A stretch of DNA of 64,000 bases from Candidatus Zhuqueibacterota bacterium (GTDB taxonomy: Bacteria; Zhuqueibacterota; Zhuqueibacteria; Residuimicrobiales; Krinioviventaceae): the NCBI GenBank assembly GCA_016928775.1, contig JAFGKD010000094.1:9504-73503 (forward strand), in the 5' to 3' direction. Every line of letters begins with the position of its first letter. Position 1 is the stretch's first letter. The translations under genes and the position numbers were made by a program. The notes beneath the pieces are model-generated. The model did no database searches. It worked only from the letters and a program-made list of their open reading frames with translations, and was not told the origin of the DNA. Of this stretch, positions 47,374 through 64,000 are shown one piece after another.

Positions 47374-50300
47374 TCACTCCAAATCCAATTCGGAAAGGAC
47401 ATCTTCTAAAACGTTCCCCGTACCACTCTTCGCATGGATATGTATCGATTCACGGCTATAACCGTCCCCGGATTTACTGTGCTCAACAATATCCCGCACA
47501 TGTTGAATATAGCTGTTCGCAAGCGCTTTGATGGTTTCGGCTTTATAGATTTTGTCACTAAAAAGAAAGCTCATCTGCAATTGATCCTGGACAATTTTGC
47601 CACTCACAAAAATTCGGAACGGTCGACGGCTGTTCGGATCACGTTCATCACGAGATTGCTCATCCGATACGCGAAACCGCGGATCATTCGCCACGTGTTT
47701 AAACTGACCTAAATAATTAAAAGCGACTTGCGGTTCCGGGATGGCCGCCAATTTTGTCGTTATATCAGTGTCCGAGCTGAGATAGCGCGCCAAACCATAA
47801 TAAAAACCGTTTTGCGGAACGGCAGCCAATTGCGCTTTGACAGCCTGGACTTTTTCCGAGAGCGTACCGCTGCCGCTGATATCCAGTTGCACCGGATACA
47901 GTGTCGTGAACCAGCCAATGGTTCGGGAAATATCAATATCTTCAAATAGATCCTCACGTCCGTGCCCTTCGAGCGCAACGCGTAGTTCTGGCTCGCCGGT
48001 CCACGCCGAAAACGCCGTAACCAGCGCAGTCAGGAGTATATCAGTTATTTGCGTTTGAAAAATCCTCGGTACCTCCTGTAACAGAGCGAACGTTTCACTC
48101 ACGGACAACTCGACTGTGAGACTTTTTGTGGATGCTTCCACATCTTCTCCCGGAAAATCAACCGGTAGATCAACGGGGCGCGGCGCCTTCAACCACGGCG
48201 CAACGACCTCATTCGCCAGCGAATCGGCATGCTCGCGCAATTTTGTCGCCCATTGCTTGAATGATGTCGTTTTGGCCGGCAACTGAATCTCCTGGCCGTT
48301 CACCGCAGTATCATAGGCGTGCACAATATCTTCCAATAGAATACGCCATGACAAGCCGTCAATGGCCATATGATGAATGGTGATGAACAATTTATCCGGG
48401 CGCCCTTCCCCCATGTTGAAATAAGCACAGCGGAAGATTGGTCCGTGCATCACATCATGGTTGGATTGCAGCTCGCGCATATGTACTTCCAGCGCCTTGG
48501 CCGCCTCGGCATCAGAGAGCGACATCAAATCAAAAACCTGAAACGGTACATTGTTTTCCGGTCTTGTTATAAACGCAGACCATTGATCTGCCTGCTTGTT
48601 GAAGCGAAGCCGAAGAATGTCATGGTGCTCTATAACTTTGACGATTACTTTTTCCAATAGATCGGTGTTGAGCGAGACCATAACATCCAAGACCAATGAC
48701 TGGTTCCAGTGGTTCACATTGGCAAATCCCTGTTCAAAAAACCAGTGCTGGACGGGGGTCAACGGCACATCACCGGTGACAAGACCTTGTTCCGCATCAA
48801 TGTGAATCCCGATCCCGGCATGCGCGGCCAGGCCGCGGATCGTTGGCGTAGTAAAAATCTGTTTAGGAGAAAGTTTCAAACCGCGCTGAAACGCGCGCGC
48901 GATCACCTGAATGCTGAGAATCGAATCACCGCCGAGCTCAAAGAAATTGTCGTCGATACCAATATCTTCGACACCAAGAACCTGTTGCCACACCTCGACC
49001 AGCACTTTTTCCGTCTCGGTTGACGCCTCCGCATAGTCGGATGCCAGGTCCGAGCGTTCAATCTGCGGCCTGGGCAAGGCCTTGCGATCAATTTTTGCAT
49101 TGGGGGTGAGTGGAAACTTGTCCAAGACGACAAAATAGGACGGGATCATATAGTCCGGCAAGCGCGGCAGCAAAAAGTCGCGCAGTTCAACTGCAGTTGG
49201 TTTTTCCTCGCCCACCAGCGTGTAGTAACTAACCAGACGCTTGTCGCCCGGTTCGTCTTCACGCACCAAAACAATGGTTTCCTTGATGGCGGGGTGCTCT
49301 TTCAGATTCGCTTCGATTTCGCCCAATTCCATGCGATAGCCGCGCAACTTGACCTGATGATCCAGGCGACCGAGGAATTGAATATTGCCGTCTCGCATAA
49401 ACCGCCCGAGGTCGCCGGTACAATAGAGACGTTCACCGTTGTCAGAGAACGGATTGGGGATAAATTTTTCCGCTGTCAACTCCGGACGATTCCAGTAGCC
49501 GCGCGCCAAACCGTCGCCGGAAATACAAATTTCGCCCACAACACCAATGGGCACAGCGCGGCGATTCTTGTCGAGAATATAAATCTGTGCATTGGTCAAA
49601 GGTTGTCCGATGGTCGGCTGGTCTGGAGCGTGATTGACATAACAAGTGGTCGCATCAACCGTGCATTCGGTGGGGCCGTACATATTGTAAATCTGAGTGC
49701 CGCATGTTTGCAAAACCCTCCAGGTTGCTTCGTCGATTGCTTCGCCACCTGGCAGCAGCGCCAGAGGCTTCCAGATGTCTTGTTCAAAAAGCCCGGCGTT
49801 CATTAATAGCTTGAGCTGCGAAGGCACGCAGTCCAGAACATCGATTCGATGATCCTGAATGTAGCACAGAAGTGCCTCACCGTCTGTGCGCACATCCGCC
49901 GGAATGATGCAGAGGTGGTTACCACGCAATAAAGTGACCAATTGCTGTACTGAAGCATCAAACAACAACGGCGCGTTAAGACTGGCAACGAGTTGGCGCT
50001 CCGGCAGATTGGTGTAGATTTGATCCTGCAAGCCGACGAAAAGATTGTATGCCGAGCGCTGCGAAATCATCACACCCTTGGGTTTGCCGGTTGAACCGGA
50101 TGTATAAATAACATAGGCGATATTATCCGGCGCGGACAGATGCACCGGATTTGTACATGGATATTCAGACAGTTTTTCACTGTCGCGATCGATGAGAAAA
50201 ACCTGCTGATTCGAAATCGGTAATTGATCCACAACATGCGATTGGGTGAGCAGATGCGCAAGTCCGGTGTCCGCAAAAATAAACTCGAGTCGTTCTCTCG

Positions 50301-53300
50301 GATAATCCGGATCGAGCGGCACATAACCGGCGCCAGCCTTGAGGATGGCTAAAATAGCAACAACCGAATCCACCGAACGCGTCATGCTCACACCGACGAG
50401 TGATTCCGAGCCCACACCGTGCTTGCGTAGATAATGGGCACATCGGTTGGCACGTTCATTCAATTCGGCGAACGTTACTTGATTATCCTGATCAGAAACG
50501 GCTAAACGATGCGGTGTCCTGTCCACTTGTGCTTCAAACAACGCAGGAAGACAAATGTCCTCCGGCAAGGATTTGCGGTTGCTGTTGAAATCACAGACAA
50601 TCGTATGATAATCAACAGTATCGAGCAAAGTCACATCCCCGACCGGCATGTCGGGATTGCTTGTGAGATTGTGCAGCAAAATTTCGAAATGGTGCACCAA
50701 AGACTGTATGGTCGATTCGTCAAACAGATCGGCGTCGTACTCTAATTGGCCGCGCAGTGTGCCAAAACGTTCGACCATGCTCATGGATAGATCAAACTTG
50801 GCAGCGCCGCTGGAAATCTGGAAGACCGACAGCCTCACGTTTGTGAGCTCGAGACTCTCTAATGCCGATTCCTGCATAGCGAACATGACCTGGAAAAAAG
50901 GCGTATGTTGGGTGTCGCGTTCGGGTTGCAGGGCATCGACCAGCTTTTCAAACGGAATGTTTTGATGATCGTAAGCCTCCAGCGCTGCATTCTTGACTTG
51001 CCGTAAAAGTTGTGCGAATGAAGGATTATCGGATAAATCCGCTCGCAGCACCAGGGTGTTGACGAAAAATCCGATGAGCGGTTCAATTTCCTTGCGCGTC
51101 CGGTTGGCGATTGGCGTGCCCACCAAAATATCGGTCTGATTGGCATAGCGGGCAAGGAGTACCTGAAATGCCGCCATCAGGGTCATAAAAACAGTAGTGC
51201 CGTGGTCACGACTCATTTTCTTAATCGCCTCCGACAGCTCTTTCGAGAGATTGTAAATCACTTCACGTCCCTTGTGCGTCCTGGTCATGGATCGAGGATG
51301 GTCTGTGGGCAATTCCAGAGCCGGCGGCACATCGGCTAATTGATTTTTCCAATAGGACAATTCAGTCTCAAGACGCTCGCCCGAAAGCCATTGGCGTTGC
51401 CAGGCGGCAAAATCAGCGTACTGCACAGTGAGTGGCGGCAATGTCAATGGTTTCTTGTGCAGCAGCGCTTCATGAATTTCCGTGAACTCACGGATAAAAA
51501 CATTCACCGACCAGCCATCGGAGATGATATGATGCATGACAATCACCAGCACATATTCTGTGATCGCCAGACGAATCATTTTCGCGCGAATCAGCGGACC
51601 GTGCTGCAAATCAAAAGGTTTGGCAGCCTCGGCATTGGCGATCTGCTGCGCCAAATGCTCACGATTCTCACCAGCATAGTCGCGCAAATCGACTAATGGC
51701 AATTCGATTTTTAACGCCGGACGTACAATCTGCCGCACGCGACCATCCGCCATAGTATCGAACGTCGTACGCAACGTCTCGTGTCGCTCGATGATAGTGT
51801 TCAAGGTCAATTCAAACACACCCAAGTCGACATCACCCAACAAACGTACAGCTATCGGAATATTGTATTGATTATTACCCGGTTCAAACTGATCGAGAAA
51901 CCAGAGGCGCTGCTGGGCAAACGACAAGTGCAGGTCTTTGTCGCGCGGAACGCGGGCAATGTGCACAACTTTATCAGCCTCGCGCAATTGTTCGGCCAAA
52001 TCTTTTTCCACCGGATAGCCAAACTGCGCTGCCAGGTCCCAGCCAATGTCGCATAAAAAATCATGCTTGTGAAATGTTTTCCATTTATCCGCCACGCTGG
52101 TGTTGATATTTTTGTGCAGATAAAATTTAAAATCTCCGACCATTTGCACATTCTTTTGTACGCCGTCGGTCATCTTTTTGCCTTTGTACGGTTCCAGCAT
52201 GGCGGGCTGGAAGTCGATGCCCAAAAATTTGCACATATGTTCAAGCTCGGCCTGCGGATTGAGCAGAATATCCTCAAAACGCACGCGATGTTGACGCTCC
52301 TGCGGCACATCCTGCAGAAATGCCAAAATATTTTGATTGCTGATAATCCAGATGATTTCGGCCAACTCGCGTCGCGTAAAAGCATGCTCATAGCGAAAAA
52401 AGTTCTGATCCAGCTTGGCTTCGATGAACGAATAAATCATTGCGTAAGGATGGCGCACGAGATGAATATAATGTGCATCCGCAAAATTTTCCTCCGCCCG
52501 CTTGAGAATGTGCGGATCGAACGGATAGGTCGGCGTTTTATCGACAAGCAATCGACCGCCCAAAAGAAGTTGTAGTTCACGATAAAATTCTTTGGTCGAC
52601 AGATTACGCTCCTCATACGCACTCATCAATTGTGTCGCCTCATCGACAGCACACTGTTTAAGCTCCATCAAGGCACGTACGGTCGCCTGCAGCCAGATTT
52701 CCAGGCCTTCCTGGGAAAAGGCAGCTTTGCGTTCCCGCAATGTATTAAAGGTGAGCAGGTCCAATTCCGGCGGCGAGAAGAGCTGTGAATTGCCGGCCAA
52801 CATGACGCGCAGCAATGTCGAACCGGAGCGCGGCGGCGACAGCACAAATACTGCTTTGCTGTTTTTCGGCATGGATTTGATATTTTCCGGTTGTGGCCGC
52901 AGGGGATTGATCAAATCGCGAAATTTCTGCAATTTATTTGCATCAACCGTCACGTCAATCCTGGATTCATCAACGGCCACCTCAAAGTGATAGTCTTTTG
53001 TCGCCTCTTCGCCAAACCTGGATTTTACCTGGTCCGTATAATACTCAGCGATATACATGGACAGCTCGTCGATGGTGGGGGCCTTGAAAACAGCGGCGAC
53101 GTGCGCGGATTCACCCAGGTCTTTTTGCAGCCGATTCATCAGCACCGCCGCCTTTAGCGAATTGCCGCCCAGATCGAAAAAATTATCGTGGATGCCAATT
53201 TTTTCAATGCCCAGCAGTTCTTGCCAGACACCAGCTAAATAAGATTCCAGTTTGTTCCGTGGCGCAACAAAATCGCTGCCGCGCCTTTCAAGTGAGGTCG

Positions 53301-56300
53301 TTGGATCCGGCAAAGCTTTCTTATCGACCTTGCCATTCGGTGTGAGTGGCAGCGCCGCAATCGATACAAAAAAGGTCGGCACCATATAGTCCGGCAGTTT
53401 TTCCAGGAGTGACGTTTTGAGCCGGCCGAGGTCAAGCTCGACGTTTTCGCACGGCACCACATAAGCGACAAGTTGTTTTTCGCCGAGCTTGTTGGCCCGC
53501 GCTAACACCACCGTGTCGGAAATCAGCTCATTCTGCTTGAGCAACGATTCTATTTCCCCCAACTCGATGCGGAATCCGCGGATTTTGACCTGCTGGTCGA
53601 TCCGCTCCAAAAATTCAACAGAACCATCGGTCGTGTAGCGCACGAGATCGCCGGTTTTGTACAAGCGATCACCGGTCACACCAAATGGATTTTGAATGAG
53701 TTTCTCGGCGTTTAATTCCGGACGATTCAAATATTCGATCATCAAACCATCGCCGCCGAGATAGAGCTCGCCCGGCACGCCAACCGGACAAATATGGAGA
53801 TGCCTGTCCAGCACATAATGTATTGAATTGGCAATGGGTTTACCAATAGGAACATTATTCACCCAATCGTCGTCAACTCTGATTTCGTAAAACGTAGAAA
53901 AAGTTGTATTCTCGGTTGGACCATATACATTTAGCAAATGCTGGGGCGGTTCATGGTTTATTGCATGCCTGGTTGCGCTTGCATCAGCCGCTTCGCCGCC
54001 AAACATCATTGTTTTCAGCGATCGAAATGCGCCCGGAATTTCATTTGTCATCTGGTTAAAATAGGCGACCGTCAAAAACATTGCCGTGATGTTTTCGGCC
54101 CGCAACCGCTCGACAAAGGTTTGCGAAGACAGCATCACCTCTTTGCTGATACCGACGAGTCGTGCGCCGGTTAAAAAAGCGCCCCAGATTTCAAAAGTAG
54201 CGGCATCAAACGCCGCATTGGAAACCTGCGCAATAATGTCTTCCGGAGTAATAGTGATGTAATTGGTCTTGATCACCAATCGCGTGATCGCACGATGCGG
54301 CACGACAACACCTTTGGGTTTTCCGGTGGAACCAGACGTGTAAATGATGTACGCCGCAGCCGTCGCCTCGACATGAATGTTCGGATTAGTTATCGGCTGC
54401 GCTGCAATCCTTTCCCAGTCCGCATCCACGGCAATACGGGAAAAATCGCCCAACGGCACCTCATCTGCCAATTGACGCTGCGTCAATACGACCGGCGCCT
54501 GGGTATCGTCCAACATAAAATCAATTCGCGCCGCGGGATAAGCCAAATCGAGCGGCACATAACACGCCCCGGCTTTGAGGATCGCCATGATGCTCACGAT
54601 CATGTCGACCGAACGTTCCATATATATCGCCACTCTGGCCCCGGGCTGAACGCCTATATCGATCAAATGCCGAGTCAGTTGATTTGCTCTTTCATTCAAC
54701 TGACGATAGGTTAATATGTCGTTTTCATACTTGACTGCGACAGCATCAGGTGATTTTTCGACCTGTTCCTCGAACAGGGTGTGCACAGCCCGGTCTCGCG
54801 GATAGTCCGTTTGGGTGTCATTCCATTCGTGTATAATCTGATGCTGCTGTGCGGTTGTGAGCAGTGAATATTTGTCAATTGTATACTCCGGATGTTGCGC
54901 AATGTGACGAAGCAGGGTGAGATAATAAACCGCCATCAATTCAACAGTCGAGCTCTTGAATAGCTCGGTGTTGTACTCGATGGTGCACTGTATCGTCTCA
55001 TCTTTGTCCATCAGCAAAAACAGCAGATCAAACTTGGCGGTCTCGAGCTCCATTTCATAAATATCCATGTTGATATCGGACAGCGACATGGCCTTGAGCG
55101 GCGAGGTTTGCAGATCAAACATGACCTGGAAAAGTGGCGAATGGCTCAAATCGCGATGCGGCTGCACGGTTTCGACGATTTTTTCAAAAGGGATATCCTG
55201 GTTCTCGGTCGCCAGCAGGATGTCGTTTTTCACCCGCTTGAGCAGATCAATAAAGGTGATCTGTTCAGAAAACTGCGCGCGCAGGGCAATAGTGTTGACA
55301 AAAAAACCAACGATGGATTCCAGCTCCTTGCGAAAACGATTGGCAATAGGCGCACCAATGCCAAAATCCTCTTGCTGGGTATATTTGTAAAAAAACAGCT
55401 GTGTCGCGGCCATCAGCGTGTTGAACAGGGATGATTGTTGTTCACGGCTCAACTGTCGCAGCGCTGCCGTGGTCGCCGCATCCAATTCGACTTTGAAATG
55501 GTCACCTTTATGAGATAACACGGACGGACGCTGAAAGTCAGTGAAAATCTCCAGAACCGGCGGCATGCCGTGCAGATAATTTTTCCAATAGACCAATTGT
55601 TTGTCGAGATTGTTAGCCGATACTTTATTGTTTTGCCACTCGGCGTAATCGGCAAACTGTAACATGGGTTCCGGCAACGGCGAAGGTTTGTTGCGACGTT
55701 CCGCTTCGTACAATGTCAAAACTTCCTGCAAAATGATGCCGATTGACCAGCCATCCACAATGATGTGATGCATATTGAGCATCAACACATGCTCGGTTTG
55801 GCTTTTGCTGAGCAGAAACGCGCGCAGCAATGGCGCTTCCTGTAACTGAAAGGCCGTTGCAGCGATTGTTTTGAGCCGGGAAGCGATCTCACCTTCCACA
55901 CTTTCCGCTGCCACATCGGACAAGTCAATGCGCTCAAGAGGGATATCGAGCTGCGCATGTACCTTTTGCTGCGGATTGCCGGTATCATCAATGATATAAC
56001 AGGATCGCAGAATTTCATGTCGCGCCACAACTTGATTGATCGCTTTTTCCATGGCACCAGCATCGATCCGTCCGTTTATCGTGACGGCAGAGGGCACGTT
56101 GTAAAATGCACTGCCGTGGTCGAGCTGATCCAAAAACCACAGCCGCATTTGCGCGGCTGACATGGGATAGGCGTCATGATCGGTCCGCTTGGTGATTCGT
56201 TCTTTCGGTGTCGCCGCCATTCCCTTGAGGCGCATTTTTTTACGCAGTAACTCTAGTTGTTCAGGCGACAAATTTTTCAGTTTTTCAGATATATTCATGG

Positions 56301-56310
56301 GTATTCTCAA
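47374..56310 (-). CDS. NRPS B (2978 aa): C-A-T-[sulfotransferase domain]-C-A-T-E with an N-terminal docking peptide
   Basis: Residue-by-residue count. Docking head EKLKNLSPEQLELLRKK. C1 has HHIIVDGWS at aa 181-189. A1 spans aa ~500-1005, with A3 AAYIIYTSGSTGKPKG at 54340, A4 AAFDAATFEIWGAF, and an atypical A6 LYLGGDGLMIEYLNRPEL. T1 is FFDLGGNSLKAA (aa 1045-1054). The sulfotransferase domain spans aa ~1105-1445. C2 has VMHHIISDGWS at aa 1592-1600. A2 has A3 IAYVIYTSGSTGKPKG and A4 LLFDASVQQLV. T2 is FFELGGDSILSIQ (aa 2456-2468). The E domain has LTPVQHWFFE, HHMAIDGLSW and LEGHGRE. A3-to-A3 spacing in this protein is about 4245 nt, against about 3.2 kb in every other protein. Confidence 0.9.
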   Translation of the reverse strand: MRIPMNISEKLKNLSPEQLELLRKKMRLKGMAATPKERITKRTDHDAYPMSAAQMRLWFLDQLDHGSAFYNVPSAVTINGRIDAGAMEKAINQVVARHEILRSCYIIDDTGNPQQKVHAQLDIPLERIDLSDVAAESVEGEIASRLKTIAATAFQLQEAPLLRAFLLSKSQTEHVLMLNMHHIIVDGWSIGIILQEVLTLYEAERRNKPSPLPEPMLQFADYAEWQNNKVSANNLDKQLVYWKNYLHGMPPVLEIFTDFQRPSVLSHKGDHFKVELDAATTAALRQLSREQQSSLFNTLMAATQLFFYKYTQQEDFGIGAPIANRFRKELESIVGFFVNTIALRAQFSEQITFIDLLKRVKNDILLATENQDIPFEKIVETVQPHRDLSHSPLFQVMFDLQTSPLKAMSLSDINMDIYEMELETAKFDLLFLLMDKDETIQCTIEYNTELFKSSTVELMAVYYLTLLRHIAQHPEYTIDKYSLLTTAQQHQIIHEWNDTQTDYPRDRAVHTLFEEQVEKSPDAVAVKYENDILTYRQLNERANQLTRHLIDIGVQPGARVAIYMERSVDMIVSIMAILKAGACYVPLDLAYPAARIDFMLDDTQAPVVLTQRQLADEVPLGDFSRIAVDADWERIAAQPITNPNIHVEATAAAYIIYTSGSTGKPKGVVVPHRAITRLVIKTNYITITPEDIIAQVSNAAFDAATFEIWGAFLTGARLVGISKEVMLSSQTFVERLRAENITAMFLTVAYFNQMTNEIPGAFRSLKTMMFGGEAADASATRHAINHEPPQHLLNVYGPTENTTFSTFYEIRVDDDWVNNVPIGKPIANSIHYVLDRHLHICPVGVPGELYLGGDGLMIEYLNRPELNAEKLIQNPFGVTGDRLYKTGDLVRYTTDGSVEFLERIDQQVKIRGFRIELGEIESLLKQNELISDTVVLARANKLGEKQLVAYVVPCENVELDLGRLKTSLLEKLPDYMVPTFFVSIAALPLTPNGKVDKKALPDPTTSLERRGSDFVAPRNKLESYLAGVWQELLGIEKIGIHDNFFDLGGNSLKAAVLMNRLQKDLGESAHVAAVFKAPTIDELSMYIAEYYTDQVKSRFGEEATKDYHFEVAVDESRIDVTVDANKLQKFRDLINPLRPQPENIKSMPKNSKAVFVLSPPRSGSTLLRVMLAGNSQLFSPPELDLLTFNTLRERKAAFSQEGLEIWLQATVRALMELKQCAVDEATQLMSAYEERNLSTKEFYRELQLLLGGRLLVDKTPTYPFDPHILKRAEENFADAHYIHLVRHPYAMIYSFIEAKLDQNFFRYEHAFTRRELAEIIWIISNQNILAFLQDVPQERQHRVRFEDILLNPQAELEHMCKFLGIDFQPAMLEPYKGKKMTDGVQKNVQMVGDFKFYLHKNINTSVADKWKTFHKHDFLCDIGWDLAAQFGYPVEKDLAEQLREADKVVHIARVPRDKDLHLSFAQQRLWFLDQFEPGNNQYNIPIAVRLLGDVDLGVFELTLNTIIERHETLRTTFDTMADGRVRQIVRPALKIELPLVDLRDYAGENREHLAQQIANAEAAKPFDLQHGPLIRAKMIRLAITEYVLVIVMHHIISDGWSVNVFIREFTEIHEALLHKKPLTLPPLTVQYADFAAWQRQWLSGERLETELSYWKNQLADVPPALELPTDHPRSMTRTHKGREVIYNLSKELSEAIKKMSRDHGTTVFMTLMAAFQVLLARYANQTDILVGTPIANRTRKEIEPLIGFFVNTLVLRADLSDNPSFAQLLRQVKNAALEAYDHQNIPFEKLVDALQPERDTQHTPFFQVMFAMQESALESLELTNVRLSVFQISSGAAKFDLSMSMVERFGTLRGQLEYDADLFDESTIQSLVHHFEILLHNLTSNPDMPVGDVTLLDTVDYHTIVCDFNSNRKSLPEDICLPALFEAQVDRTPHRLAVSDQDNQVTFAELNERANRCAHYLRKHGVGSESLVGVSMTRSVDSVVAILAILKAGAGYVPLDPDYPRERLEFIFADTGLAHLLTQSHVVDQLPISNQQVFLIDRDSEKLSEYPCTNPVHLSAPDNIAYVIYTSGSTGKPKGVMISQRSAYNLFVGLQDQIYTNLPERQLVASLNAPLLFDASVQQLVTLLRGNHLCIIPADVRTDGEALLCYIQDHRIDVLDCVPSQLKLLMNAGLFEQDIWKPLALLPGGEAIDEATWRVLQTCGTQIYNMYGPTECTVDATTCYVNHAPDQPTIGQPLTNAQIYILDKNRRAVPIGVVGEICISGDGLARGYWNRPELTAEKFIPNPFSDNGERLYCTGDLGRFMRDGNIQFLGRLDHQVKLRGYRMELGEIEANLKEHPAIKETIVLVREDEPGDKRLVSYYTLVGEEKPTAVELRDFLLPRLPDYMIPSYFVVLDKFPLTPNAKIDRKALPRPQIERSDLASDYAEASTETEKVLVEVWQQVLGVEDIGIDDNFFELGGDSILSIQVIARAFQRGLKLSPKQIFTTPTIRGLAAHAGIGIHIDAEQGLVTGDVPLTPVQHWFFEQGFANVNHWNQSLVLDVMVSLNTDLLEKVIVKVIEHHDILRLRFNKQADQWSAFITRPENNVPFQVFDLMSLSDAEAAKALEVHMRELQSNHDVMHGPIFRCAYFNMGEGRPDKLFITIHHMAIDGLSWRILLEDIVHAYDTAVNGQEIQLPAKTTSFKQWATKLREHADSLANEVVAPWLKAPRPVDLPVDFPGEDVEASTKSLTVELSVSETFALLQEVPRIFQTQITDILLTALVTAFSAWTGEPELRVALEGHGREDLFEDIDISRTIGWFTTLYPVQLDISGSGTLSEKVQAVKAQLAAVPQNGFYYGLARYLSSDTDITTKLAAIPEPQVAFNYLGQFKHVANDPRFRVSDEQSRDERDPNSRRPFRIFVSGKIVQDQLQMSFLFSDKIYKAETIKALANSYIQHVRDIVEHSKSGDGYSRESIHIHAKSGTGNVLEDVLSELDLE
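47440..48800 (-). other. Epimerization domain of NRPS B (approximate bounds)
   Basis: It is preceded by an E-type T domain (GGDSI). Motifs are PLTPVQHWFFEQ, HHMAIDGLSWRIL and LEGHGRE. It occupies the C-terminal ~460 aa. Confidence 0.75.
51976..52998 (-). other. Integrated PAPS-type sulfotransferase domain inside NRPS B, between T1 and C2
   Basis: About 340 aa. The 5'-PSB loop VFVLSPPRSGSTLLRVML lies at about 52810..52836. The 3'-PB region KTPTYPFDPHILKRAEENFADAHYIHLVRHPYAMIYSF lies at about 52447..52539. It shares these motifs with the stand-alone sulfotransferase at 11192..12313. It is flanked by an intact T domain upstream and a C domain downstream (LHLSFAQQRLWFLDQ). Confidence 0.8.
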
Positions 56311-56316
56311 GCAAGT

Positions 56317-59300
56317 CTATTCTTCACTGAGCAATCGTTGCAATTCCTCTTCAGACAGATTTTCAACTTCCGACAGCATTGAGGCCAGCTCCTGTTCATC
56401 AACCTGAGCAGCTTGTTCTTCGGCGATGGCGCGCGCAATACCTTCGGCTGTGGGATTTTCAAATAAAACGCGCAAAGGCAGCTCAACCTGATATTCTTCC
56501 CGTAATTGCGACACAATTTGTGTTCCCAACATGGAATGCCCCCCCAGCTCAAAAAAATTGTCCAGCACACCGACGTGCTCGACTTTGAGCACCTCAGCTA
56601 AAATCTCGGTCAAACGTTTTTCAGTCGCCGTGCGCGGTGCGATATATTCTGTCTCGACATGTGGTCGCAGTTGATCAGGTTCTGGCAAAGCGCGGCGGTT
56701 TATTTTGCCGGCAGGAGTCATCGGCATTCTTTCAAGCTGCATAAAAGCGCCTGGAATCATATAGTCCGGCAATCTCGTTTGTAAAAAGTCGCGCAGATTA
56801 GTCACCGACGGCTCGTTTTCACCAACAAATTCATAATACGCCACAAGCACCTTTTCTGCAGAACCGCTCTGGCGAGAAATCACAATGCCGTTTTTCATCC
56901 CAGGGTATTGATTCAGCATCGCTTCAATTTCACCCAATTCAATACGATAGCCGCGGATTTTCACCTGTTGATCGACACGGCCTAGAAACTCAATATGTCC
57001 GCGATTGTTATAGCGTACCAGATCACCGGTTCGATACAACCGCTCACCTGCGCCATAAAATGGATTGGGGACAAAACGCTCGGCTGTCAAATCCGGCCGG
57101 TTCAAGTAACCGCGCGCCAGCGTGTACCCGCCAATATAGAGCTCGCCGGGAAGACCGATTGGAACGGGAAAACCATGCGCGTCCAAAATATAAACCGCTC
57201 GTTGCAAAAGCGCTTGACCAATCGGGATGCTACCTTCATCCACTTCCTCGCGCCACTGTACAGGAATATCAAAAGCTGTAGCCGTGATCGTTGTTTCTGT
57301 TGGCCCATAGGCGTTAATGAGCCTCGCCTGTCGCAAGGGCGACTGCTGCCACGGCGTGAGGGAATCTGTGGACATGAGATCGCCGCCAATAATCACGAGC
57401 CGAACTGACGACTCTTTCAAGCCATCCTCAGCCCAGATTTTAACACACTGGTTCCAATACGCCGTCGGCAGATTGATCACAGTCAACTGCTGGTCACGGA
57501 TAAAACGAATCAATTCTTCCGGTGACCATACTGTATTATCCCGCATGAACAGCGAAGCGCCCGTCAACAGGGTTGGGAAAATTTGCTCGAGAGCAGCGTC
57601 AAAATTTGTCGAGGCAAATTGCAAAATCCTGTCCTGCGGCGTCAGTTGATAGAATTGCTGCATGCCCAAACAGTGCTGCACAAATGCCGCATGTGTGATG
57701 AGCACGCCTTTGGGAGCGCCGGTTGATCCGGAGGTGTAAATAATGTACGCGCTTTGTTGCGGATGGATCGTTGGGCTGATATTTTGTGCATCCGAATCTG
57801 AATTTGGCTCAAGATGTTCATCCACAAACAAAATCGATAACGAATCCGTTTTGATTAACGTGGCAATTTTACTGTGCGATATCACAACCGAAACTTTTGA
57901 ATCCGCCAGCATGTACTCAATTCGATCCGGCGGATAATCGGGATCGAGTGGCAGGAACGCGGCGCCGGCTTTCAGGATTGCCAGCATGCAAACGAGAAGG
58001 TCAATCGAACGCTCCAAATAGATGCCGACAATAGAATCAGGCTGGACACCCCGCTCGAGCAGTTGACGCGCTAATTGGTTGGCGCGCGCGTTGAAAGCGG
58101 CGTAAGAAAGAGTTTCCGAGCCGCAGGAAATGGTCGCATCGGGCGTCCTTACGACTTGGTGCTCGAGATAATAACATATAGAATGCTCAAAGTGCAGCGG
58201 CTGTCGCGCTGATTCATTTTTTGCGCTTAATAATACCGCTTTTTCATGTGCTGTTAAATATTGAATATCCGAGATCGGCTGATCGGCATGATCACCGATC
58301 TCTTTGAATAATGTTTTGATGTGCCCGATCATCCGTTCGATGGTCGCGCTATCGAACAGGTCCGTATTATAAACGATCTGACCATCGAGTCCGCCGTTTT
58401 TCGGCTCGAGCACAAATGTCAAATCAAATTTTGCCGTCGGTGTATGAAGCTGCAGGGGTTCAATAGTGACATTGGGCAAAACAAGCTGTTGTGCCGGTGC
58501 ATTCTGCATGACAAACATGGTTTGAAAGTAAGGTGGTCGACTCATGTCGCGTTCGGGTTTGAGCTCTTCCACAATCATTTCAAACGGGATGTCCTGATGC
58601 GCAAAAGCACCCAGGGCTGTTTCCTTGACCCGCTTTACCAGATCGATAAACGATGGATTACCCGACAAGCTCGTGCGCATAACCAACGTATTGACAAAGA
58701 CACCAAGCAGCGATTCAAGCTCGGAACGGTTTCGATTGGCGATCGGGGTGCCAATCGAAATATCGTCCTGCCCCGAATAGCGACGCAGTAAAAGCGCCAG
58801 CGCCCCCAGCAAGGTCATAAACAGCGTGACATCATATTTTTTGCTCAAACTCTCGAGGTTTTTTGTGATATCCTGCCTAATAGTGAAATAAAAAACATCT
58901 CCATTATGCGTTTGGATTTTCGGTCGCGGATGATCAATCGGCACATTGAGCGCTGTATCGCCGCCTGCTAACTTTTCGTGCCAAAAGCCCAATTGCTGCT
59001 GCAATACCTCACCCTGCAAATAGTCGCGTTGCCAGCACGCATAATCGACATATTGAATGGGCAAATCCGGTAAAACGACCGAAGTGCCGGAAGTATAGCT
59101 TTGATATAACGCCGCAAATTCTTTGATAAAAACAGTCAGCGTCCAGGCATCCGAAATAATATGATGCATGGTCACTAAAAAGACATAGTCATTGGTGTCC
59201 ATTTTGATCAGCAGCGCACGCATCATCGGGCCGGTTTGCAGATTGAACGGTGCTTGAGAAATCTGAACGGATTCCTGGTGCAGGCGTTTTTGCCGCTCGT

Positions 59301-59700
59301 CGAGCGGCAGACTCGACACATCCAGTTGCTCTAATTGAATAGCGCTTTCGGCCTGCAGTCGTTGCACCGGCACACCATTTTTGCTCTCGAAAACAGTGCG
59401 TAGCACCTCGTGCCGCTGCCCCAGGCTTGTCAAGACATGCTCAATCGCAGCAATATTGATGATGCCCTTGATGGATACGGCAGCGGGATTGTTATACATG
59501 GGATTCCCCGGTTCCAGTTGGTCGAGGAACCACATCCGCTGTTGGGCATAGGAGAGCGGAAAGTGTTCTCGCTCGCGGCTCTGCGGCAAAATGCGAGTTT
59601 TCTTTAAATCAACATTTTGCTCGGCTAGTATTTTTTCCAAAAGCTTTCTCTTTTCCGGAGAGAGCTTGCTGATGTCTCTGAAAATATCGTTCATAGGCAA
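56317..59700 (-). CDS. NRPS A (1127 aa): C-A-T single module with N- and C-terminal docking peptides; first amino-acid module after the PKS
   Basis: Docking head FRDISKLSPEKRKLLEKIL. C domain: LSYAQQRMWFLDQLEPGNPMYN with MHHIISDAW (a D-A variant of HHxxxDG). A3 SAYIIYTSGSTGAPKG lies near 57745, A4 is ASTNFDAALEQIF, and A5 is NAYGPTETT. The T domain is FFELGGHSMLGTQ. The acidic tail is ASMLSEVENLSEEELQRLLSEE. Confidence 0.9.
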   Translation of the reverse strand: MPMNDIFRDISKLSPEKRKLLEKILAEQNVDLKKTRILPQSREREHFPLSYAQQRMWFLDQLEPGNPMYNNPAAVSIKGIINIAAIEHVLTSLGQRHEVLRTVFESKNGVPVQRLQAESAIQLEQLDVSSLPLDERQKRLHQESVQISQAPFNLQTGPMMRALLIKMDTNDYVFLVTMHHIISDAWTLTVFIKEFAALYQSYTSGTSVVLPDLPIQYVDYACWQRDYLQGEVLQQQLGFWHEKLAGGDTALNVPIDHPRPKIQTHNGDVFYFTIRQDITKNLESLSKKYDVTLFMTLLGALALLLRRYSGQDDISIGTPIANRNRSELESLLGVFVNTLVMRTSLSGNPSFIDLVKRVKETALGAFAHQDIPFEMIVEELKPERDMSRPPYFQTMFVMQNAPAQQLVLPNVTIEPLQLHTPTAKFDLTFVLEPKNGGLDGQIVYNTDLFDSATIERMIGHIKTLFKEIGDHADQPISDIQYLTAHEKAVLLSAKNESARQPLHFEHSICYYLEHQVVRTPDATISCGSETLSYAAFNARANQLARQLLERGVQPDSIVGIYLERSIDLLVCMLAILKAGAAFLPLDPDYPPDRIEYMLADSKVSVVISHSKIATLIKTDSLSILFVDEHLEPNSDSDAQNISPTIHPQQSAYIIYTSGSTGAPKGVLITHAAFVQHCLGMQQFYQLTPQDRILQFASTNFDAALEQIFPTLLTGASLFMRDNTVWSPEELIRFIRDQQLTVINLPTAYWNQCVKIWAEDGLKESSVRLVIIGGDLMSTDSLTPWQQSPLRQARLINAYGPTETTITATAFDIPVQWREEVDEGSIPIGQALLQRAVYILDAHGFPVPIGLPGELYIGGYTLARGYLNRPDLTAERFVPNPFYGAGERLYRTGDLVRYNNRGHIEFLGRVDQQVKIRGYRIELGEIEAMLNQYPGMKNGIVISRQSGSAEKVLVAYYEFVGENEPSVTNLRDFLQTRLPDYMIPGAFMQLERMPMTPAGKINRRALPEPDQLRPHVETEYIAPRTATEKRLTEILAEVLKVEHVGVLDNFFELGGHSMLGTQIVSQLREEYQVELPLRVLFENPTAEGIARAIAEEQAAQVDEQELASMLSEVENLSEEELQRLLSEE

Positions 59701-59714
59701 TTGTTGTATCAGAA

Positions 59715-62700
59715 TTATTTACTCTGCTGCGCAAGCAAAGCCTGCACTTGTTCATCGGAAAGACTATCCACCATTTTGAGCGCTTGAGCGATTTTTTCAG
59801 CTTCGTCATCCTGTTCTGTTTTTACCTTTTGCACAAGTTCACTAATTGTTGCGATGGTTGGTGACTCGAACAAATCGCGCAGTGGCAGCTCAACGCGGTA
59901 GGTATCGCGCATGCGGGAGACCAATTGCGTCGCTAACAAGGAGTGACCGCCGAGATCGAAAAAATCATCGTAAATACCGATGCCATCGATACCTAATAAT
60001 TCACCCCAGATATCCGCCATATGTTTTTCCAGCTCATTGCGCGGCTCGACAAAAGGCGTCGTCATATTGGGACGGGGTTGACGTGTCCCTGACGTTTGCA
60101 TGCTCTGGTCAGCGCTTTCGGATTCAAATCGTACCCATATTTTAATCCGTTGCGATAAATCACCCGTCGAGACCACGATTTGCGGCAATCCCATGTTTTG
60201 TAAAATGATATCAAATGCTCGCACGCCTTCGCTCGCGCTCATGACGAATTCTTCAATATCCATTCTGCTCGCTGTCTCGCCAAAAGACCAGCCATCCCAA
60301 TTGACACTCGTCCAGATTGTGTTGCCCTTTTTGTTCTGAATGGCTGCCAAAGCATCAAGATAGGCATTGGCCGCAGCATAGGCATACATACCAAGACCGC
60401 CGAGAATGGTGGAGAGTGAGGACTGGAAAATAACAAAGTCGAGGCCATCTTCTTTCGACAGTATTGATGCGAGCACCCGGCTACCGTAGATTTTTGAAGT
60501 AAACTGGTTTTCGCTGGTATCCACGTCCGTATCCTGGATCGTCACGGTCGCGCGTTCCCCAACCAGTCCGGCGGCATGAATGATACCGTTCAGGCCACCA
60601 AAATGCTCGCGTGTCCAATTGAGGATATTGAGCATCTGATTTTGATCAGAGATATTGGCATGCAGCACCAACACTTCGGCGCCTTTTTCCTCATATTCCT
60701 GAATGAGCTTTATTTTGCCAGCAATCCGGGAATCATCTTTTTTGATGATCTCACTCCATTCATCCCGCTCCGGCAGGGCGATCTGATCGACAAGCACAAG
60801 TTTTGCCTGATAATTTTCCGCCAGATGGCCGGCCAGGGTGAGGCCAATATTGCCGAGTCCTCCGGTGATCAGATAAATTCCCTCCTGGCGCAGGAGACTT
60901 GCAACATCTGTAGAGGATTCAGCAGCAAACGGCTCAAATCGTTGCACCCATCGTAGCTTGTTTCGGTAAGCGATCACTGTATCGGTTGATCGCGCTTCAA
61001 ACTCCTGCAACAAGACATCGAGGTTATACTCATCTGTATCTATCATATGACAACGCATGTTGGAGTATTCTTGCGGCACAATCTTGCATGCGCCAAGAAA
61101 AGCCGCGTTGTCAGGATTGAGCGCTTCTGCACCGGTGATGTCAAAGGCCTCTCGCGTGCCAATATTCATATGGATGGGATTGGTGATGCCGTGCCGCGCC
61201 AGATTTTTCACCAACCAGAGCAGCGAATAATAACCCTTTTGCAAAGAATTTCTGACATCTCGGCTCGACATCGTCCAGGCGTGCACGATTCGATCGGGGA
61301 TGTAATTTTCAGCCACCAAATGGTCGACCAGCTTTTCGTAATGCTCCTGTTGCTCCGGGCGGACGATCATTTTGTGTTCATCAACATAAAAATCCGAACC
61401 TGTTTGTATGATCTTGTAGTGGTGTTTTGCACTCGTGAGTCGATTAATGAGATTTTCATCAATATCCTGGTCAATGAAAAACAGGTATTTCAAGTTTTCA
61501 TGACTTTCATCAGAAGACCGAAAGAGCGCCCGTTTCCAGGTCGGGGTATAAAACCAATCAATAATATTTTTGCTTTTGCCTTTCGAACGTCTTGCTGCAC
61601 CCGATGCCGGCAAGTGAACATTCAACCAATAGCGTTGCCTTTCGAACGGATAGGTCGGCAACGGAATGCGGTGACGGACCTCGTAGGTATCAAATCCCTC
61701 CCAATTCACATCGCCACCCACCAGCCAGATTCGCGCTAATGTATTCAAAAGAAAAGCCTGATCATGAGCTTGGTCTTTCGGATGGCGAATGGACGACAAG
61801 ATCACTTGATCTGCTGACGCTGAGTCGTGAAGGCGCGTGAGCGTATTGAGCGTTTTTCCGGGACCGACTTCAAGATAAATATAATCAAAGCCGCCCAGCA
61901 GTTCACCAATGCCTTGATGAAATTTGACCGGCGAACGGAGATGTTCGGCATAATATCGCGGATCAGTCGCTTCATCAGCGGTAATCCATGTACCTGTCAC
62001 ATTTGAAATATACGGAATTTCCGGGGGATTAAAATGGACGTGTGCACAACGTTGTTGAAATGTCTCGATGATTGGCTCCATCATATAGCTATGAAAAGCG
62101 TGCGAGGTGTGCAGTCGGGTAAATTCAACCTGGTCTTTTTCAAGACTTTTTACGAGCTCATTTACCGCTTCAAAGGTCCCACTCAAGACCGTTAGATGTG
62201 CAGCATTCAAGGCCGAAATATTCAGATCCTTGTTTAAATATTTCCCCAGGTCCTGGACGCCCAGATTCACGCTCAACATGGCGCCACCCGGCATTCGCTG
62301 CATTAAATCACCGCGCAAAGCGACGAGCATCAAAGCGTCTTCCAGACTCAGCACGCCGGCCAGACAGGCAGCCACGTATTCGCCAATACTATGACCGATC
62401 ATGGCTTGCGGTTCCACACCCCATTCTTTCAAAAGCATGGCCATCGCATATTCTATAACAAACAAGGCAGGCTGGGTAAAACGGGTTTGTGCGAGTTGTT
62501 CTTGAGCTAACTGCTTCTCTCCTTCGTTCGGATAAATCACCGTACGCAAATCAACTCCGAGAGTGGAATCCAGCAGGTCACAGCAGGTATTGATACTCTC
62601 TCGAAAAGTCGGTTCATTCTCATAAAGATCGCGACCCATATTGACGTATTGAGCGCCCTGGCCACTGAACATAAACACGATTGACTTTTCCTCGATATCT

Positions 62701-64000
62701 TCCGGATGGCTGTAGACCAAAACGCGCTCCGGATCAACCGAACCCAAAACAGCAATTGCATCCTGGCGCGATTGACAAACAACCGCCATACGGTGGGGAA
62801 AACTTTTGCGGCCCAATTGCAGGGTAAACGCCACATCGGCCAGATTCACTTCAGGATTGTTTTCCAGAAAGACGACAAAATTTTCTCTGGCTTTCGACAG
62901 AGCCTGCTGTGATCTGGCGGACAGCAGCAGCAGTTGATGTTGGCGCGACTGCGTTGTTTTCACACGCTCGGGAGCGTCCTCCAATATCAGATGAACATTG
63001 GTGCCGCCTATGCCGAACGAGCTTACTCCGGCGAAACGCGGTGTACCCTCTGGGTGCCAATCGCGCAATTCGCTATTGACAAAAAAAGGTGAACTCTCAA
63101 GCTCCAATTTGGGATTGGGCGCAGTGAAATTGATGTTAGGTGGAATTTTTTTATGTTTTATCGCCAAAGCTGTTTTGATCAGGCTGGTGACACCGGCCGC
63201 AGCGTCGAGATGACCAACATTCGGTTTGACCGAGCCAATCGCGCAATATTGGGTCCGTTCCGTTCTCTCGCGAAACACTTTGGTGAGCGCGGTAATTTCA
63301 ATAGGATCACCCAGATTTGTTCCTGTTCCGTGCGTTTCTATATAGGTAATATCATCCGGCTCCACGCCTGAGACCAGTTGCGCTTCAGCAACAACATGCG
63401 CCTGGCCATCCACACTCGGCGCCGTATAGCCGACCTTGAGCGCGCCGTCATTATTGCACGCTGCGCCTTTGATGACCGCATAAATATTGTCATTGTCGGC
63501 CAGTGCATCTTCCAGGCGTTTGAGCAGCACCACACCGCAACCATTACCGGGCATGGTACCATTGGCATCAGCATCAAAGGCACGACAATGCCCATCAGGT
63601 GACAATATCATGCCTTCCTGATACAGGAATCCCGATTTTTGTGGAAATGTGATTGTACAGCCGCCGGCCAATGCCATGTCGGACTGATAGTTCACCAAAC
63701 TCTGGCATGCCAAAAAAACTGCGGTCAGGGAAGTCGAGCAGGCAGTTTGCACATCCAGACTGGGACCGCGCAGATTCAGCTTGTAGGAAACTTTGGTCGT
63801 TAAAAAGTCTTTTTCATTGCCGATGGAAATTTGGTAACCTTCCGCTGTGTCTATTTTACCTTCCGTGGCTGCGAGAAAAGGGATGATATAGGTGTTCATT
63901 CCGGCACCGGCAAATGTACCGATGAGACCGGGGAAACTATCCGGACAATAGCCGGCATTTTCCAAAGCTTCCCAGGCACATTCCAAAAACAAACGATGCT
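59715..64000 (-). CDS. Type I PKS module KS-AT-KR-carrier protein; N-terminus (start of KS and anything upstream) lies outside the window
   Basis: The frame stays open to the window edge. The ORF-track M is a TTG inside the conserved KS motif ASLFLECAWEALENAGY. KS: TACSTSL (Cys at about 63738..63740), HGTGTNLGDP, NVGHLDAAAG, GGTNVHLILED. AT: GQGAQY, GHSIGE (Ser about 62391..62393), HAFHS (malonyl-type). KR: LITGGLGNIGLTLAGHLA (about 60843..60866) and a K...S...YAYAAANAYLD catalytic set. Carrier: FFDLGGHSLLATQ. C-terminal docking tail: ALKMVDSLSDEQVQALLAQQSK. Confidence 0.9.
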   Translation of the reverse strand, partial: HRLFLECAWEALENAGYCPDSFPGLIGTFAGAGMNTYIIPFLAATEGKIDTAEGYQISIGNEKDFLTTKVSYKLNLRGPSLDVQTACSTSLTAVFLACQSLVNYQSDMALAGGCTITFPQKSGFLYQEGMILSPDGHCRAFDADANGTMPGNGCGVVLLKRLEDALADNDNIYAVIKGAACNNDGALKVGYTAPSVDGQAHVVAEAQLVSGVEPDDITYIETHGTGTNLGDPIEITALTKVFRERTERTQYCAIGSVKPNVGHLDAAAGVTSLIKTALAIKHKKIPPNINFTAPNPKLELESSPFFVNSELRDWHPEGTPRFAGVSSFGIGGTNVHLILEDAPERVKTTQSRQHQLLLLSARSQQALSKARENFVVFLENNPEVNLADVAFTLQLGRKSFPHRMAVVCQSRQDAIAVLGSVDPERVLVYSHPEDIEEKSIVFMFSGQGAQYVNMGRDLYENEPTFRESINTCCDLLDSTLGVDLRTVIYPNEGEKQLAQEQLAQTRFTQPALFVIEYAMAMLLKEWGVEPQAMIGHSIGEYVAACLAGVLSLEDALMLVALRGDLMQRMPGGAMLSVNLGVQDLGKYLNKDLNISALNAAHLTVLSGTFEAVNELVKSLEKDQVEFTRLHTSHAFHSYMMEPIIETFQQRCAHVHFNPPEIPYISNVTGTWITADEATDPRYYAEHLRSPVKFHQGIGELLGGFDYIYLEVGPGKTLNTLTRLHDSASADQVILSSIRHPKDQAHDQAFLLNTLARIWLVGGDVNWEGFDTYEVRHRIPLPTYPFERQRYWLNVHLPASGAARRSKGKSKNIIDWFYTPTWKRALFRSSDESHENLKYLFFIDQDIDENLINRLTSAKHHYKIIQTGSDFYVDEHKMIVRPEQQEHYEKLVDHLVAENYIPDRIVHAWTMSSRDVRNSLQKGYYSLLWLVKNLARHGITNPIHMNIGTREAFDITGAEALNPDNAAFLGACKIVPQEYSNMRCHMIDTDEYNLDVLLQEFEARSTDTVIAYRNKLRWVQRFEPFAAESSTDVASLLRQEGIYLITGGLGNIGLTLAGHLAENYQAKLVLVDQIALPERDEWSEIIKKDDSRIAGKIKLIQEYEEKGAEVLVLHANISDQNQMLNILNWTREHFGGLNGIIHAAGLVGERATVTIQDTDVDTSENQFTSKIYGSRVLASILSKEDGLDFVIFQSSLSTILGGLGMYAYAAANAYLDALAAIQNKKGNTIWTSVNWDGWSFGETASRMDIEEFVMSASEGVRAFDIILQNMGLPQIVVSTGDLSQRIKIWVRFESESADQSMQTSGTRQPRPNMTTPFVEPRNELEKHMADIWGELLGIDGIGIYDDFFDLGGHSLLATQLVSRMRDTYRVELPLRDLFESPTIATISELVQKVKTEQDDEAEKIAQALKMVDSLSDEQVQALLAQQSK
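59838..60050 (-). other. Carrier protein domain of the PKS module (PCP-like GGHSL phosphopantetheine site)
   Basis: EKHMADIWGELLGIDGIGIYDDFFDLGGHSLLATQLVSRMRDTY. Confidence 0.75.
60123..61565 (-). other. Ketoreductase domain (structural plus catalytic subdomains); no LDD motif seen
   Basis: Rossmann motif TGGLGNIG and catalytic Lys (FTSKIYG), Ser (FQSSLS) and Tyr (YAYAAANAY). The region before the catalytic subdomain reads HAAGLVGERAT and lacks an LDD triad. Confidence 0.7.
61713..62690 (-). other. Acyltransferase domain, malonyl-CoA-type (HAFH)
   Basis: GHSIGEYVAACLAG and HAFHSYMMEP; aa about 435-760. Confidence 0.75.
62973..64000 (-). other. Ketosynthase domain (partial)
   Basis: Motifs as listed for the PKS CDS; aa 1 to about 340 of the in-window translation. 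Confidence 0.8.

Follow-up and report, generated by a model that had tools for sequence, protein, structure and literature searches.

The window analysed here, a 64,000-nucleotide stretch of contig JAFGKD010000094.1 from Candidatus Zhuqueibacterota bacterium, carries a nonribosomal peptide synthetase (NRPS) gene, NRPS B, in which a sulfotransferase (ST) domain is fused in cis between the thiolation (T) domain of one module and the condensation (C) domain of the next. The 2974-residue product, read from an ATG on the minus strand, has the order C-A-T-ST-C-A-T-E, where A and E are adenylation and epimerisation domains. By sequence and modelled fold, the insert is a sulfotransferase of the 3'-phosphoadenosine 5'-phosphosulfate (PAPS) type, belongs to the family of the CurM and olefin synthase (OLS) STs, and is intact; it is predicted to be functional and PAPS-dependent. 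Sulfation of the growing peptide on its carrier seems the most reasonable role for such a domain, and with modest confidence we favour a reading in which this CurM-family ST sulfates the chain bound to the adjoining carrier (T1), the likeliest acceptor being the alcohol made by an upstream ketoreductase (KR) on a tyrosine-derived, statine-like unit.

A preliminary description of the window had placed an in-cis T-ST-C arrangement at 51976-52998 without giving a strand. These coordinates are right: the segment lies within a single minus-strand open reading frame (ORF; 47374..56310) whose translation is free of stops and frameshifts and whose probable ATG start is at 56298. Pfam assigns Sulfotransfer_3 (PF13469), one of the two families that had been expected, to residues 1154-1369 with a score of 97.2 bits against a curated cutoff of 27 (E=2e-27), the match extending over profile positions 2-216 of 216; Sulfotransfer_1, the other, is a second and weaker match on the insert. 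The Pfam domain order for the whole protein is C-A-T-ST-C-A-T-C/E, and motifs and hidden Markov models (HMMs) identify the last domain as E, so that C-A-T-E follows the ST and, as had been proposed, no thioesterase (TE) adjoins it. All of the motifs originally quoted for the T domain and the PAPS-binding loops are present in the translation: the T-domain motif FFDLGGNSLKAA at residues 1044-1055, PPRSGSTLL at residues 1159-1167 (52810..52836), KTPTYPFDPHIL at residues 1258-1269, and HYIHLVRHP at residues 1280-1288. The C domain after the ST begins at about residue 1459. A specialised C domain at this place was considered and ruled out, C2 being an ordinary LCL domain with its HHIISDG motif intact.

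The spacing between successive A3 motifs, first given as ~4245 nt compared with ~3.2 kb elsewhere, measures 4236 nt in NRPS B, compared with 3165-3210 nt for each of the remaining module pairs, and this excess corresponds to an insert of ~350 residues, of which the ST domain itself makes up ~285. In the AlphaFold2 model the linker between T1 and the ST begins with ~20 residues of low confidence and includes a helix packed against the core of the ST. An independent public assembly (Logan SRR13394437_26196) is 100% identical over 17,684 nt and its gene call is a single 2974-residue product; a sequencing frameshift is therefore unlikely, and the fusion is not an assembly artefact.

When compared with all PDB sequences, the ST is closest to the crystallised STs of CurM (4gbm, E=8e-69) and OLS (4gox, E=9e-59), with which it shares ~42-45% identity; the next matches are tyrosylprotein sulfotransferases at ~1e-3. 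The AlphaFold2 model, built on 52 homologues, has a mean predicted local distance difference test (pLDDT) score of 89.5, and Foldseek again returned 4gbm and 4gox as the best PDB chains, with target-normalised TM scores of 0.91 and 0.95. Among the best 50 of 70 Foldseek PDB matches (E<=0.001), all are sulfotransferases except for the related retinol dehydratase, so the fold is the one that the preliminary description had predicted. The PAPS-binding residues also hold up in a proper alignment of 52 sequences, in which R1161, S1162, G1163, and T1165 of the 5'-phosphosulfate-binding (PSB) loop and Arg1286 and Ser1294 of the 3'-phosphate-binding (PB) segment are invariant. The same is true of Glu1182, which lies in SPPELDLL (52753..52776) and aligns with the catalytic Glu of CurM, and of Lys1258, which aligns with the Lys of the VDK(S/T)P motif of CurM and OLS.

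The catalytic roles of Glu60, His62, and Lys133 in CurM reportedly go back to McCarthy et al. 2012, His62 being the CurM numbering of the position two residues after the catalytic Glu. The expectation that the catalytic His and Lys would both be found held for the Lys only: the SPPELH histidine of CurM and OLS is absent, and the corresponding residue is Asp1184 (52759..52761). Across the wider family, CurM, OLS, and many cyanobacterial ACP-ST proteins have His at this position, STs that adjoin Ser, Thr, or Tyr NRPS modules have Glu in 43 of 44 cases, the clade of the window has Asp, and a further subtype has Ala. The residue thus tracks context and may be a marker of specificity. In all three cases of the Ala subtype (L006, L011, and L014, contigs introduced below), the ST stands directly after a module with the Lys-like code DAEDIGT[IV]VK, and this subtype may N-sulfonate a basic residue. 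A separate group of cyanobacterial free-standing proteins of ~430-450 residues (P0011, P0024, P0033-P0118), annotated just as 'sulfotransferase' or 'acyl carrier protein', combines a carrier-like N-terminus with a CurM-type ST and has His at this position.

A scan of genome contigs with the single protein found four relatives, all in Calditrichota metagenome-assembled genomes (MAGs). Compared with the window, these four are 64-69% identical over the ST and 58-70% over T1, and the corresponding figures are 41-51% for the C domains, 41-57% for the A domains, 37-39% for E, and 16-33% for the two linkers. By these figures the ST together with T1 is the most strongly constrained part of NRPS B among its orthologues, a pattern that indicates purifying selection.

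What the ST might act upon depends on the chain that reaches T1, and here the neighbouring genes are informative. All of the cluster genes lie on the minus strand, and the window holds, in order, a polyketide synthase (PKS) module, NRPS A, NRPS B, and a further four NRPS genes that together encode ten modules. The PKS module, KS-AT-KR-ACP, is cut by the end of the window; it is complete in L005, the upstream continuation of the source contig, where it has 1525 residues, and it contains no DH domain. L005 also supplies the upstream DNA, in which the first megasynthase (3097 residues) starts with FAAL-ACP-KS-AT and ends with DH-ACP-C-A-T, the A domain having the Tyr code DASTIAAVCK. Because this first gene ends in A(Tyr)-T, the KR module extends a tyrosyl residue, and its hydroxyl should accordingly sit on a γ-amino-β-hydroxy (statine-like) unit within the chain and not on a lipid cap. 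L005 also has a 238-residue ORF (4607..5323) that overlaps the end of this megasynthase and precedes the KR-containing PKS; it is made of an N-terminal C-domain stub and a T domain and is possibly a remnant, the result of a frameshift, or a protein with a docking or carrier function.

To obtain Stachelhaus codes, the A domains were aligned to GrsA, a procedure that recovered DAWTIAAICK for GrsA itself. NRPS A, which adds residue aa1, has the code DAENIGAITK; A1, beside the ST, has the Ile/Val-like code DAFFMGVTFK, and the following module is Gln-like. The later modules read, in order, DGATVAGVAK, Phe, two Lys-like codes, DVSLMGGIAK, Phe, Orn-like, Asn, Tyr, and Thr, which with the upstream genes makes a near-complete, FAAL/PKS-primed cluster for ~14 residues. 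The pocket segment of NRPS A is closest to that of ApnA A1 (4d4g), which is an A domain bispecific for Arg and Tyr, so that aa1 may be basic, with a sulfamate as the possible product, or phenolic.

We annotated ten further contigs of relatives (L004 and L006-L014), which together with the window give a related set of at least nine clusters from Calditrichota-like MAGs and metagenome contigs. L006 begins too late to show the upstream genes, and L012 represents another family: its ST has Glu at the His62 position and follows a Ser module, and no KR lies upstream within the short stretch of DNA covered. The order KS-AT-KR-ACP, then C-A(DAENIGAITK)-T, then C-A(variable)-T-ST-C-A-T-E is shared by the window (with its continuation L005), L004, L007, L008, L009, L010, L011, L013, and L014; DAENIGAITK is replaced once, by DQENIGAITK, and all five clusters with readable DNA just ahead of the PKS have a Tyr or Tyr-like module there. 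The code next to the ST varies: DAFFMGVTFK, DALWLGGTFK, DAFFYGATFK, DAFFLGVTFK, DAFFLGCTFK, DAQLMGGFTK, the Gln code DAQDLGMVDK, and the Lys-like DAEDIGTIVK all occur. In L010 the orthologous ST is fused one module earlier, directly to the DAENIGAITK module, in the arrangement T-T-ST. Since the upstream series is conserved, the residue adjoining the ST is variable, and the L010 ST stands earlier, the acceptor probably lies upstream of residue 2, apparently in the conserved segment acyl-Tyr-ψ[CH(OH)CH2CO]-aa1.

Each cluster has exactly one ST of the window type (the Asp subtype, 54-69% identical to that of the window); the ST of L013 has diverged further, with Glu instead of this Asp and 50% identity. 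The sister clusters carry between one and three in-line STs as well as free-standing ones: L011 (9097..19359) has a tandem T-ST-T-ST and a third ST later, and L006 (13172..22120), L010 (14745..20351), and L014 (19271..28255) have two in-line STs each. In L013, the NRPS gene that bears the ST is immediately followed by two free-standing Sulfotransfer_1 genes (13108..15008), which thus lie among the synthetase genes. One in-line and one free-standing ST are present in the window.

In the mechanism that we propose, the chain would be built as far as residue 2 and held on T1 as a thioester, and the phosphopantetheine arm would offer it to the fused ST. Glu1182 would deprotonate the acceptor, and the sulfonate group would be transferred to it from a PAPS molecule gripped by the PSB loop, Lys1258, Arg1286, and Ser1294; C2 would then condense the modified chain with the Gln on T2, and the sulfated chain would move on to the ten modules beyond the Gln module. 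The acceptor would be found within the N-terminal segment laid down by three modules (Tyr, KS-AT-KR-ACP, and the DAENIGAITK residue), and we rank the KR-made secondary alcohol first since CurM and OLS act on an acceptor of the same chemical kind. We infer that the ST acts on the T1-bound chain, that this alcohol provides the acceptor atom, and that the product retains the sulfate; a sulfate ester would be expected to gain in stability when the carbonyl beside it has become part of an amide and no longer of a thioester. The preliminary description had also pointed to the KR hydroxyl, which remains the favoured site, but it had put this hydroxyl on a lipid cap, which is wrong given that the KR module extends Tyr.

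Several observations weigh against this proposal, and they bear above all on the acceptor, whose assignment is drawn from gene order and homology. The STs of CurM, OLS, and the glycerate systems described below use a hydroxyl β to the thioester, and the KR-made hydroxyl would sit two residues away from it. Co-occurrence cannot separate the three candidate acceptors, because the Tyr phenol and aa1 are as well conserved as the KR. Acceptor handling may differ from that of CurM, since the equivalent of His62 is Asp. The KR stereochemistry motifs (LDD, W), which were sought for comparison with the preference of CurM for an (R)-hydroxyl, are absent or ambiguous and so uninformative on the acceptor. 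No gene for PAPS synthesis is present in the window. Finally, no hydroxylase gene was found from the last NRPS gene to the end of the cluster, but a trans-acting hydroxylase may be encoded in the ~8 kb of the source contig upstream of gene 1.

The strongest competing possibility, though in our estimate an unlikely one, is on-carrier sulfonation of the aa1 side chain or of the upstream Tyr phenol, with a sulfamate formed if aa1 is basic. The (near-)invariance of DAENIGAITK in the related clusters, the fusion of the L010 ST directly to its module, and the resemblance of the NRPS A pocket to ApnA A1 all speak for it. So does the company kept by other STs: the Ala subtype always directly follows a Lys-like module, and seven STs follow modules with the Dab-like (2,4-diaminobutyrate) code DIWExTADDK, so that amine-bearing residues seem to be ST partners. 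The CurM family is not known to include N-sulfotransferases, the KR and Tyr are conserved equally with aa1, and the substrate of DAENIGAITK is a prediction. There is a precedent in that SulN N-sulfonates a T-bound peptide in trans (PMC11298585). A further reading, in which this ST subtype reaches back along the carrier-bound peptide to a remote site to leave either an N-sulfonate on aa1 or a transient sulfate on the KR alcohol, something that no characterised enzyme of the CurM family is known to do, strikes us as improbable. Less probable again is a CurM-like activating role, in which sulfate would be a transient leaving group on the KR-made hydroxyl and its elimination would give a vinylogous tyrosine without a DH, or its displacement by a nucleophile a ring. 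The closest characterised relatives do activate a β-hydroxyl in this way (PMC11730487, PMC6274090), and the KS-AT-KR-ACP module lacks a DH; against this, there is neither an adjacent TE nor another eliminating partner, C2 is an ordinary LCL domain, and the published NRPS-embedded cases keep the sulfate on glycerate (PMC10143770). Decoration fits better than activation because the sister clusters bear one to three in-line STs in addition to free-standing ones.

Sulfation of residue 2, offered as an option in the preliminary description, would require trans β-hydroxylation of the Ile/Val-like residue on T1 and is highly improbable. It would agree with the tendency of STs in the wider family to follow hydroxyl-bearing residues and with the family's usual acceptor, a β-hydroxyl beside the thioester, but the code of the adjacent A domain is aliphatic in the window (its predicted side chain has no hydroxyl) and varies among clusters, Gln and Lys-like codes included, and the ST of L010 precedes the module altogether. 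We therefore discarded residue 2 as the main acceptor. A trans hydroxylase was likewise sought downstream of the last NRPS and is absent there, where the genes encode the free-standing ST, then an MFS transporter, an MbtH-like protein and a thioesterase, and lastly a phosphopantetheinyl transferase (PPTase). The least probable reading of all is that the ST is a relic without activity, or that it serves purely for structure or docking; this reading stands as the formal null, with no direct evidence in its favour. The PAPS-binding and catalytic residues are all intact, and the ST, best conserved with T1, is kept in every related cluster examined, which makes a relic very unlikely.

To place the domain among its relatives, we searched 1.84 billion representative proteins exhaustively with HMMER and obtained 1163 matches at E<=1e-30; the best 150 of these are almost all NRPS-embedded STs. 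The 144 newly returned proteins among these 150, annotated with HMMs made from the window's own domains, contain 152 ST domains, seven of the proteins having two each. The order A-T-ST-C accounts for 72 of the 152, and A-T-ST followed by the end of the protein for another 53, a class that mixes true ST-TE termini with truncated proteins because the HMMs were built on the domains of the window; just three STs follow KR-T. The exact C-A-T-ST-C-A-T-E layout recurs in 16 representatives of ~2950-3180 residues. Taxonomic labels of fragment matches in a word-indexed protein search include Calditrichota, Zixibacteria, Thermoanaerobaculia, Aminicenantes, Methylomirabilota, Chloroflexota, and cyanobacteria. 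Codes for Ser, Thr, or Tyr are found on 44 of 110 readable A domains adjacent to an ST, compared with 11 of the 89 A domains elsewhere in these proteins (odds ratio 4.7, Fisher p=1.3e-5), and this enrichment supports a general rule that an in-line ST modifies the load of its own carrier. The published STs of AerB, DysB, and OciA, described below, also sulfate the unit held on the carrier in front of them (PMC10143770, PMC6520454).

Two further arrangements appeared in this set. Dozens of NRPS termini (among P0121-P0264) consist of C-A-T-ST and a tail of ~290 residues, which in the one case submitted to Pfam (P0148) is a PF00975 thioesterase, and the last A code of such ST-TE termini is often Ser, Thr, Tyr, or the Dab-like DIWExTADDK. 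By analogy these termini could release an enamide through a CurM-like decarboxylation, or could represent the SulN-type monobactam route in fused form; we found no paper on them in a literature coverage that falls short of most subscription journals. In P0233 the place of C or TE after the ST is taken by a lipid A acyltransferase-like domain (residues 980-1333; PF03279, E=5e-5).

These searches change how unusual the arrangement should be considered. The preliminary description held that an ST placed mid-line in an NRPS, with elongation continuing beyond it, was not an established architecture, and it proposed a search for other examples. That search shows A-T-ST-C to be the dominant context among the closest database relatives, and PCP-ST-C (PCP, peptidyl carrier protein) has been published for AerB (suomilide and varlaxin), DysB (dysinosin), and OciA (Planktothrix cyanopeptolin), in which the ST sulfates an FkbH-loaded glycerate starter, elongation continues, and the sulfate is kept (PMC10143770, PMC6520454, PMC2533009). 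The claim of novelty was thus too strong: the ST-in-NRPS finding is real and useful, and far less exceptional than was implied, the layout being abundant in public sequence data and common among uncultured bacteria. Within the same limited literature coverage, these glycerate cases and SulN were all that we found on sulfated lipopeptides and NRPS STs, and we found no description of an ST after an ordinary aminoacyl elongation module; the genome-mining figure of the SulM paper does have a 'sulfotransferase domain' symbol for predicted NRPS clusters (PMC11298585). On the present evidence the ST of NRPS B is best filed as one that follows an ordinary elongation module, has an apparently remote acceptor, and belongs to a multi-ST lipopeptide cluster family of Calditrichota-like bacteria, and the biochemistry of this aminoacyl-module version of an in-line ST appears untouched.

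The likeness to AerB, DysB, and OciA lies in the carrier-ST-condensation order and in the elongation beyond it. Those cyanobacterial STs, however, follow a glycerate loading module and sulfate the starter, whereas the ST of the window, from a non-cyanobacterial genome, comes after a complete elongation module (C-A-T) whose code is aliphatic and apparently has its acceptor further back in the chain; C-A precedes T1, and neither FkbH nor a methyltransferase is found in NRPS B or the cluster. A protein from Limnofasciculus baicalensis (P0175) combines an FkbM-type methyltransferase and an FkbH-like region, assigned by eye from a haloacid dehalogenase (HAD)-type motif where Pfam gave no FkbH family, with T-ST-C-A-T-E, and its ST is 53% identical to that of the window. 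With CurM and OLS the window ST shares family, fold, PAPS loops, the catalytic Glu and Lys, and fusion directly after an assembly-line carrier. The CurM and OLS STs, in contrast, belong to a PKS ACP-ST-TE terminus, act on a β-hydroxyacyl thioester from the KR of the same module, have His two residues after the catalytic Glu, and drive decarboxylative release; that of the window stands after the T of an NRPS elongation module and before a C domain, is two modules downstream of the nearest KR, has Asp at that position, and has no TE partner, being followed by C-A-T-E and four more NRPS genes (eleven modules in all) with no TE in the protein.

SulN of sulfazecin biosynthesis, compared here by description only, is similarly PAPS-dependent and modifies a peptide still bound to its NRPS carrier, N-sulfonating 2,3-diaminopropionate; it is free-standing and acts in trans, and its N-sulfonation prepares the β-lactam closure by the TE, whereas the ST of NRPS B is fused (PMC11298585). 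StaL, TotS, Cpz8/Cpz4, and Stf1/Stf9 represent another kind again, that of PAPS-dependent enzymes which decorate peptide or lipid products and, unlike the in-line ST, are not fused to an assembly line. Free-standing tailoring sulfotransferases of this sort generally act after release. The second sulfotransferase of the window (11192..12313) is of this kind: it shares ~27% identity with the in-line ST over a 145-residue local alignment, and its closest solved structures are mycobacterial Stf9 and Stf1. Given that later modules encode Tyr and Thr, the product may bear two sulfates.

The coordinates of the features are collected in Table 1. The last NRPS has no TE, R, or terminal C domain at its end, and the sole thioesterase is a separate protein of 256 residues (8614..9384, minus strand). 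Beyond the cluster genes, 1823..3211 and 3283..7194, both on the minus strand, encode large secreted proteins with type IX secretion system (T9SS) C-terminal sorting domains (Por_Secre_tail), one a Kelch β-propeller and the other with PPC, Big_1, and F5/8-type C domains. These sorting domains suggest an FCB-group host, in agreement with the Calditrichota labels of the closest relatives, and the description of the host as Calditrichota-like is drawn from both.

Table 1. Features of NRPS B and of the surrounding cluster in the window (positions are those of the window).
Feature	Coordinates	Strand	Evidence
NRPS B, C-A-T-ST-C-A-T-E, 2974 aa	47374..56298	-	ORF list, translation, Pfam, own HMM annotation, Logan gene call
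C1, condensation domain of module aa2, HHIIVDG	54841..56178	-	Pfam, motif
A1, Stachelhaus code DAFFMGVTFK, Ile/Val-like, predicted side chain without hydroxyl	53281..54783	-	alignment to GrsA
T1, carrier adjoining the ST; phosphopantetheine Ser in GGNS, aa 1051 (53158..53160)	53041..53253	-	Pfam, motif
T-ST linker, ~60 aa	52858..53040	-	AlphaFold2 model; 16-28% identity between orthologues
ST domain core, aa 1152-1433	52012..52857	-	Pfam, PDB sequence matches, AlphaFold2 and Foldseek, invariance in 52 homologues
C2, ordinary LCL condensation domain, HHIISDG	50602..51936	-	Pfam, motif; 43-47% identical to the cluster's other LCL domains
A2, code DAQDLGMVDK, Gln-like	49081..50538	-	alignment to GrsA
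T2, carrier domain	48820..49005	-	Pfam
E, epimerisation domain, HHMAIDG, EGHGRE	47431..48783	-	translation, own HMMs
NRPS A, C-A-T, module aa1, code DAENIGAITK	56317..59694	-	Pfam, alignment to GrsA
PKS module KS-AT-KR-ACP, N-terminus cut by the window end	59715..64000	-	Pfam; predicted maker of the β-hydroxyl
Last NRPS, 4717 aa, ends T-E	12369..26522	-	TIGR01720 match
Free-standing ST, 373 aa, Sulfotransfer_3, directly after the last NRPS gene	11192..12313	-	Pfam
MbtH-like protein, 71 aa, between the MFS transporter and thioesterase genes	9394..9609	-	Pfam

Sulfation alters the charge, solubility, and target binding of peptides and is usually credited to free-standing tailoring enzymes. The set of A-T-ST-C and A-T-ST-TE proteins described here suggests that sulfonation is often encoded in the assembly line itself, with ST subtypes that track context. 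If the rules of acceptor choice were worked out, genome mining could predict which positions are sulfated, and the T-ST unit could become a transferable part for engineering. If the invariant residue is basic and is N-sulfonated, the products would be sulfamate-bearing cationic lipopeptides, and an eliminated or displaced sulfate, if that were the outcome, would make the ST a DH surrogate inside an NRPS. Taken with the one to three in-line STs, of distinct subtypes, in the sister clusters, either would amount to a programmable, module-encoded sulfonation logic for nonribosomal peptides.

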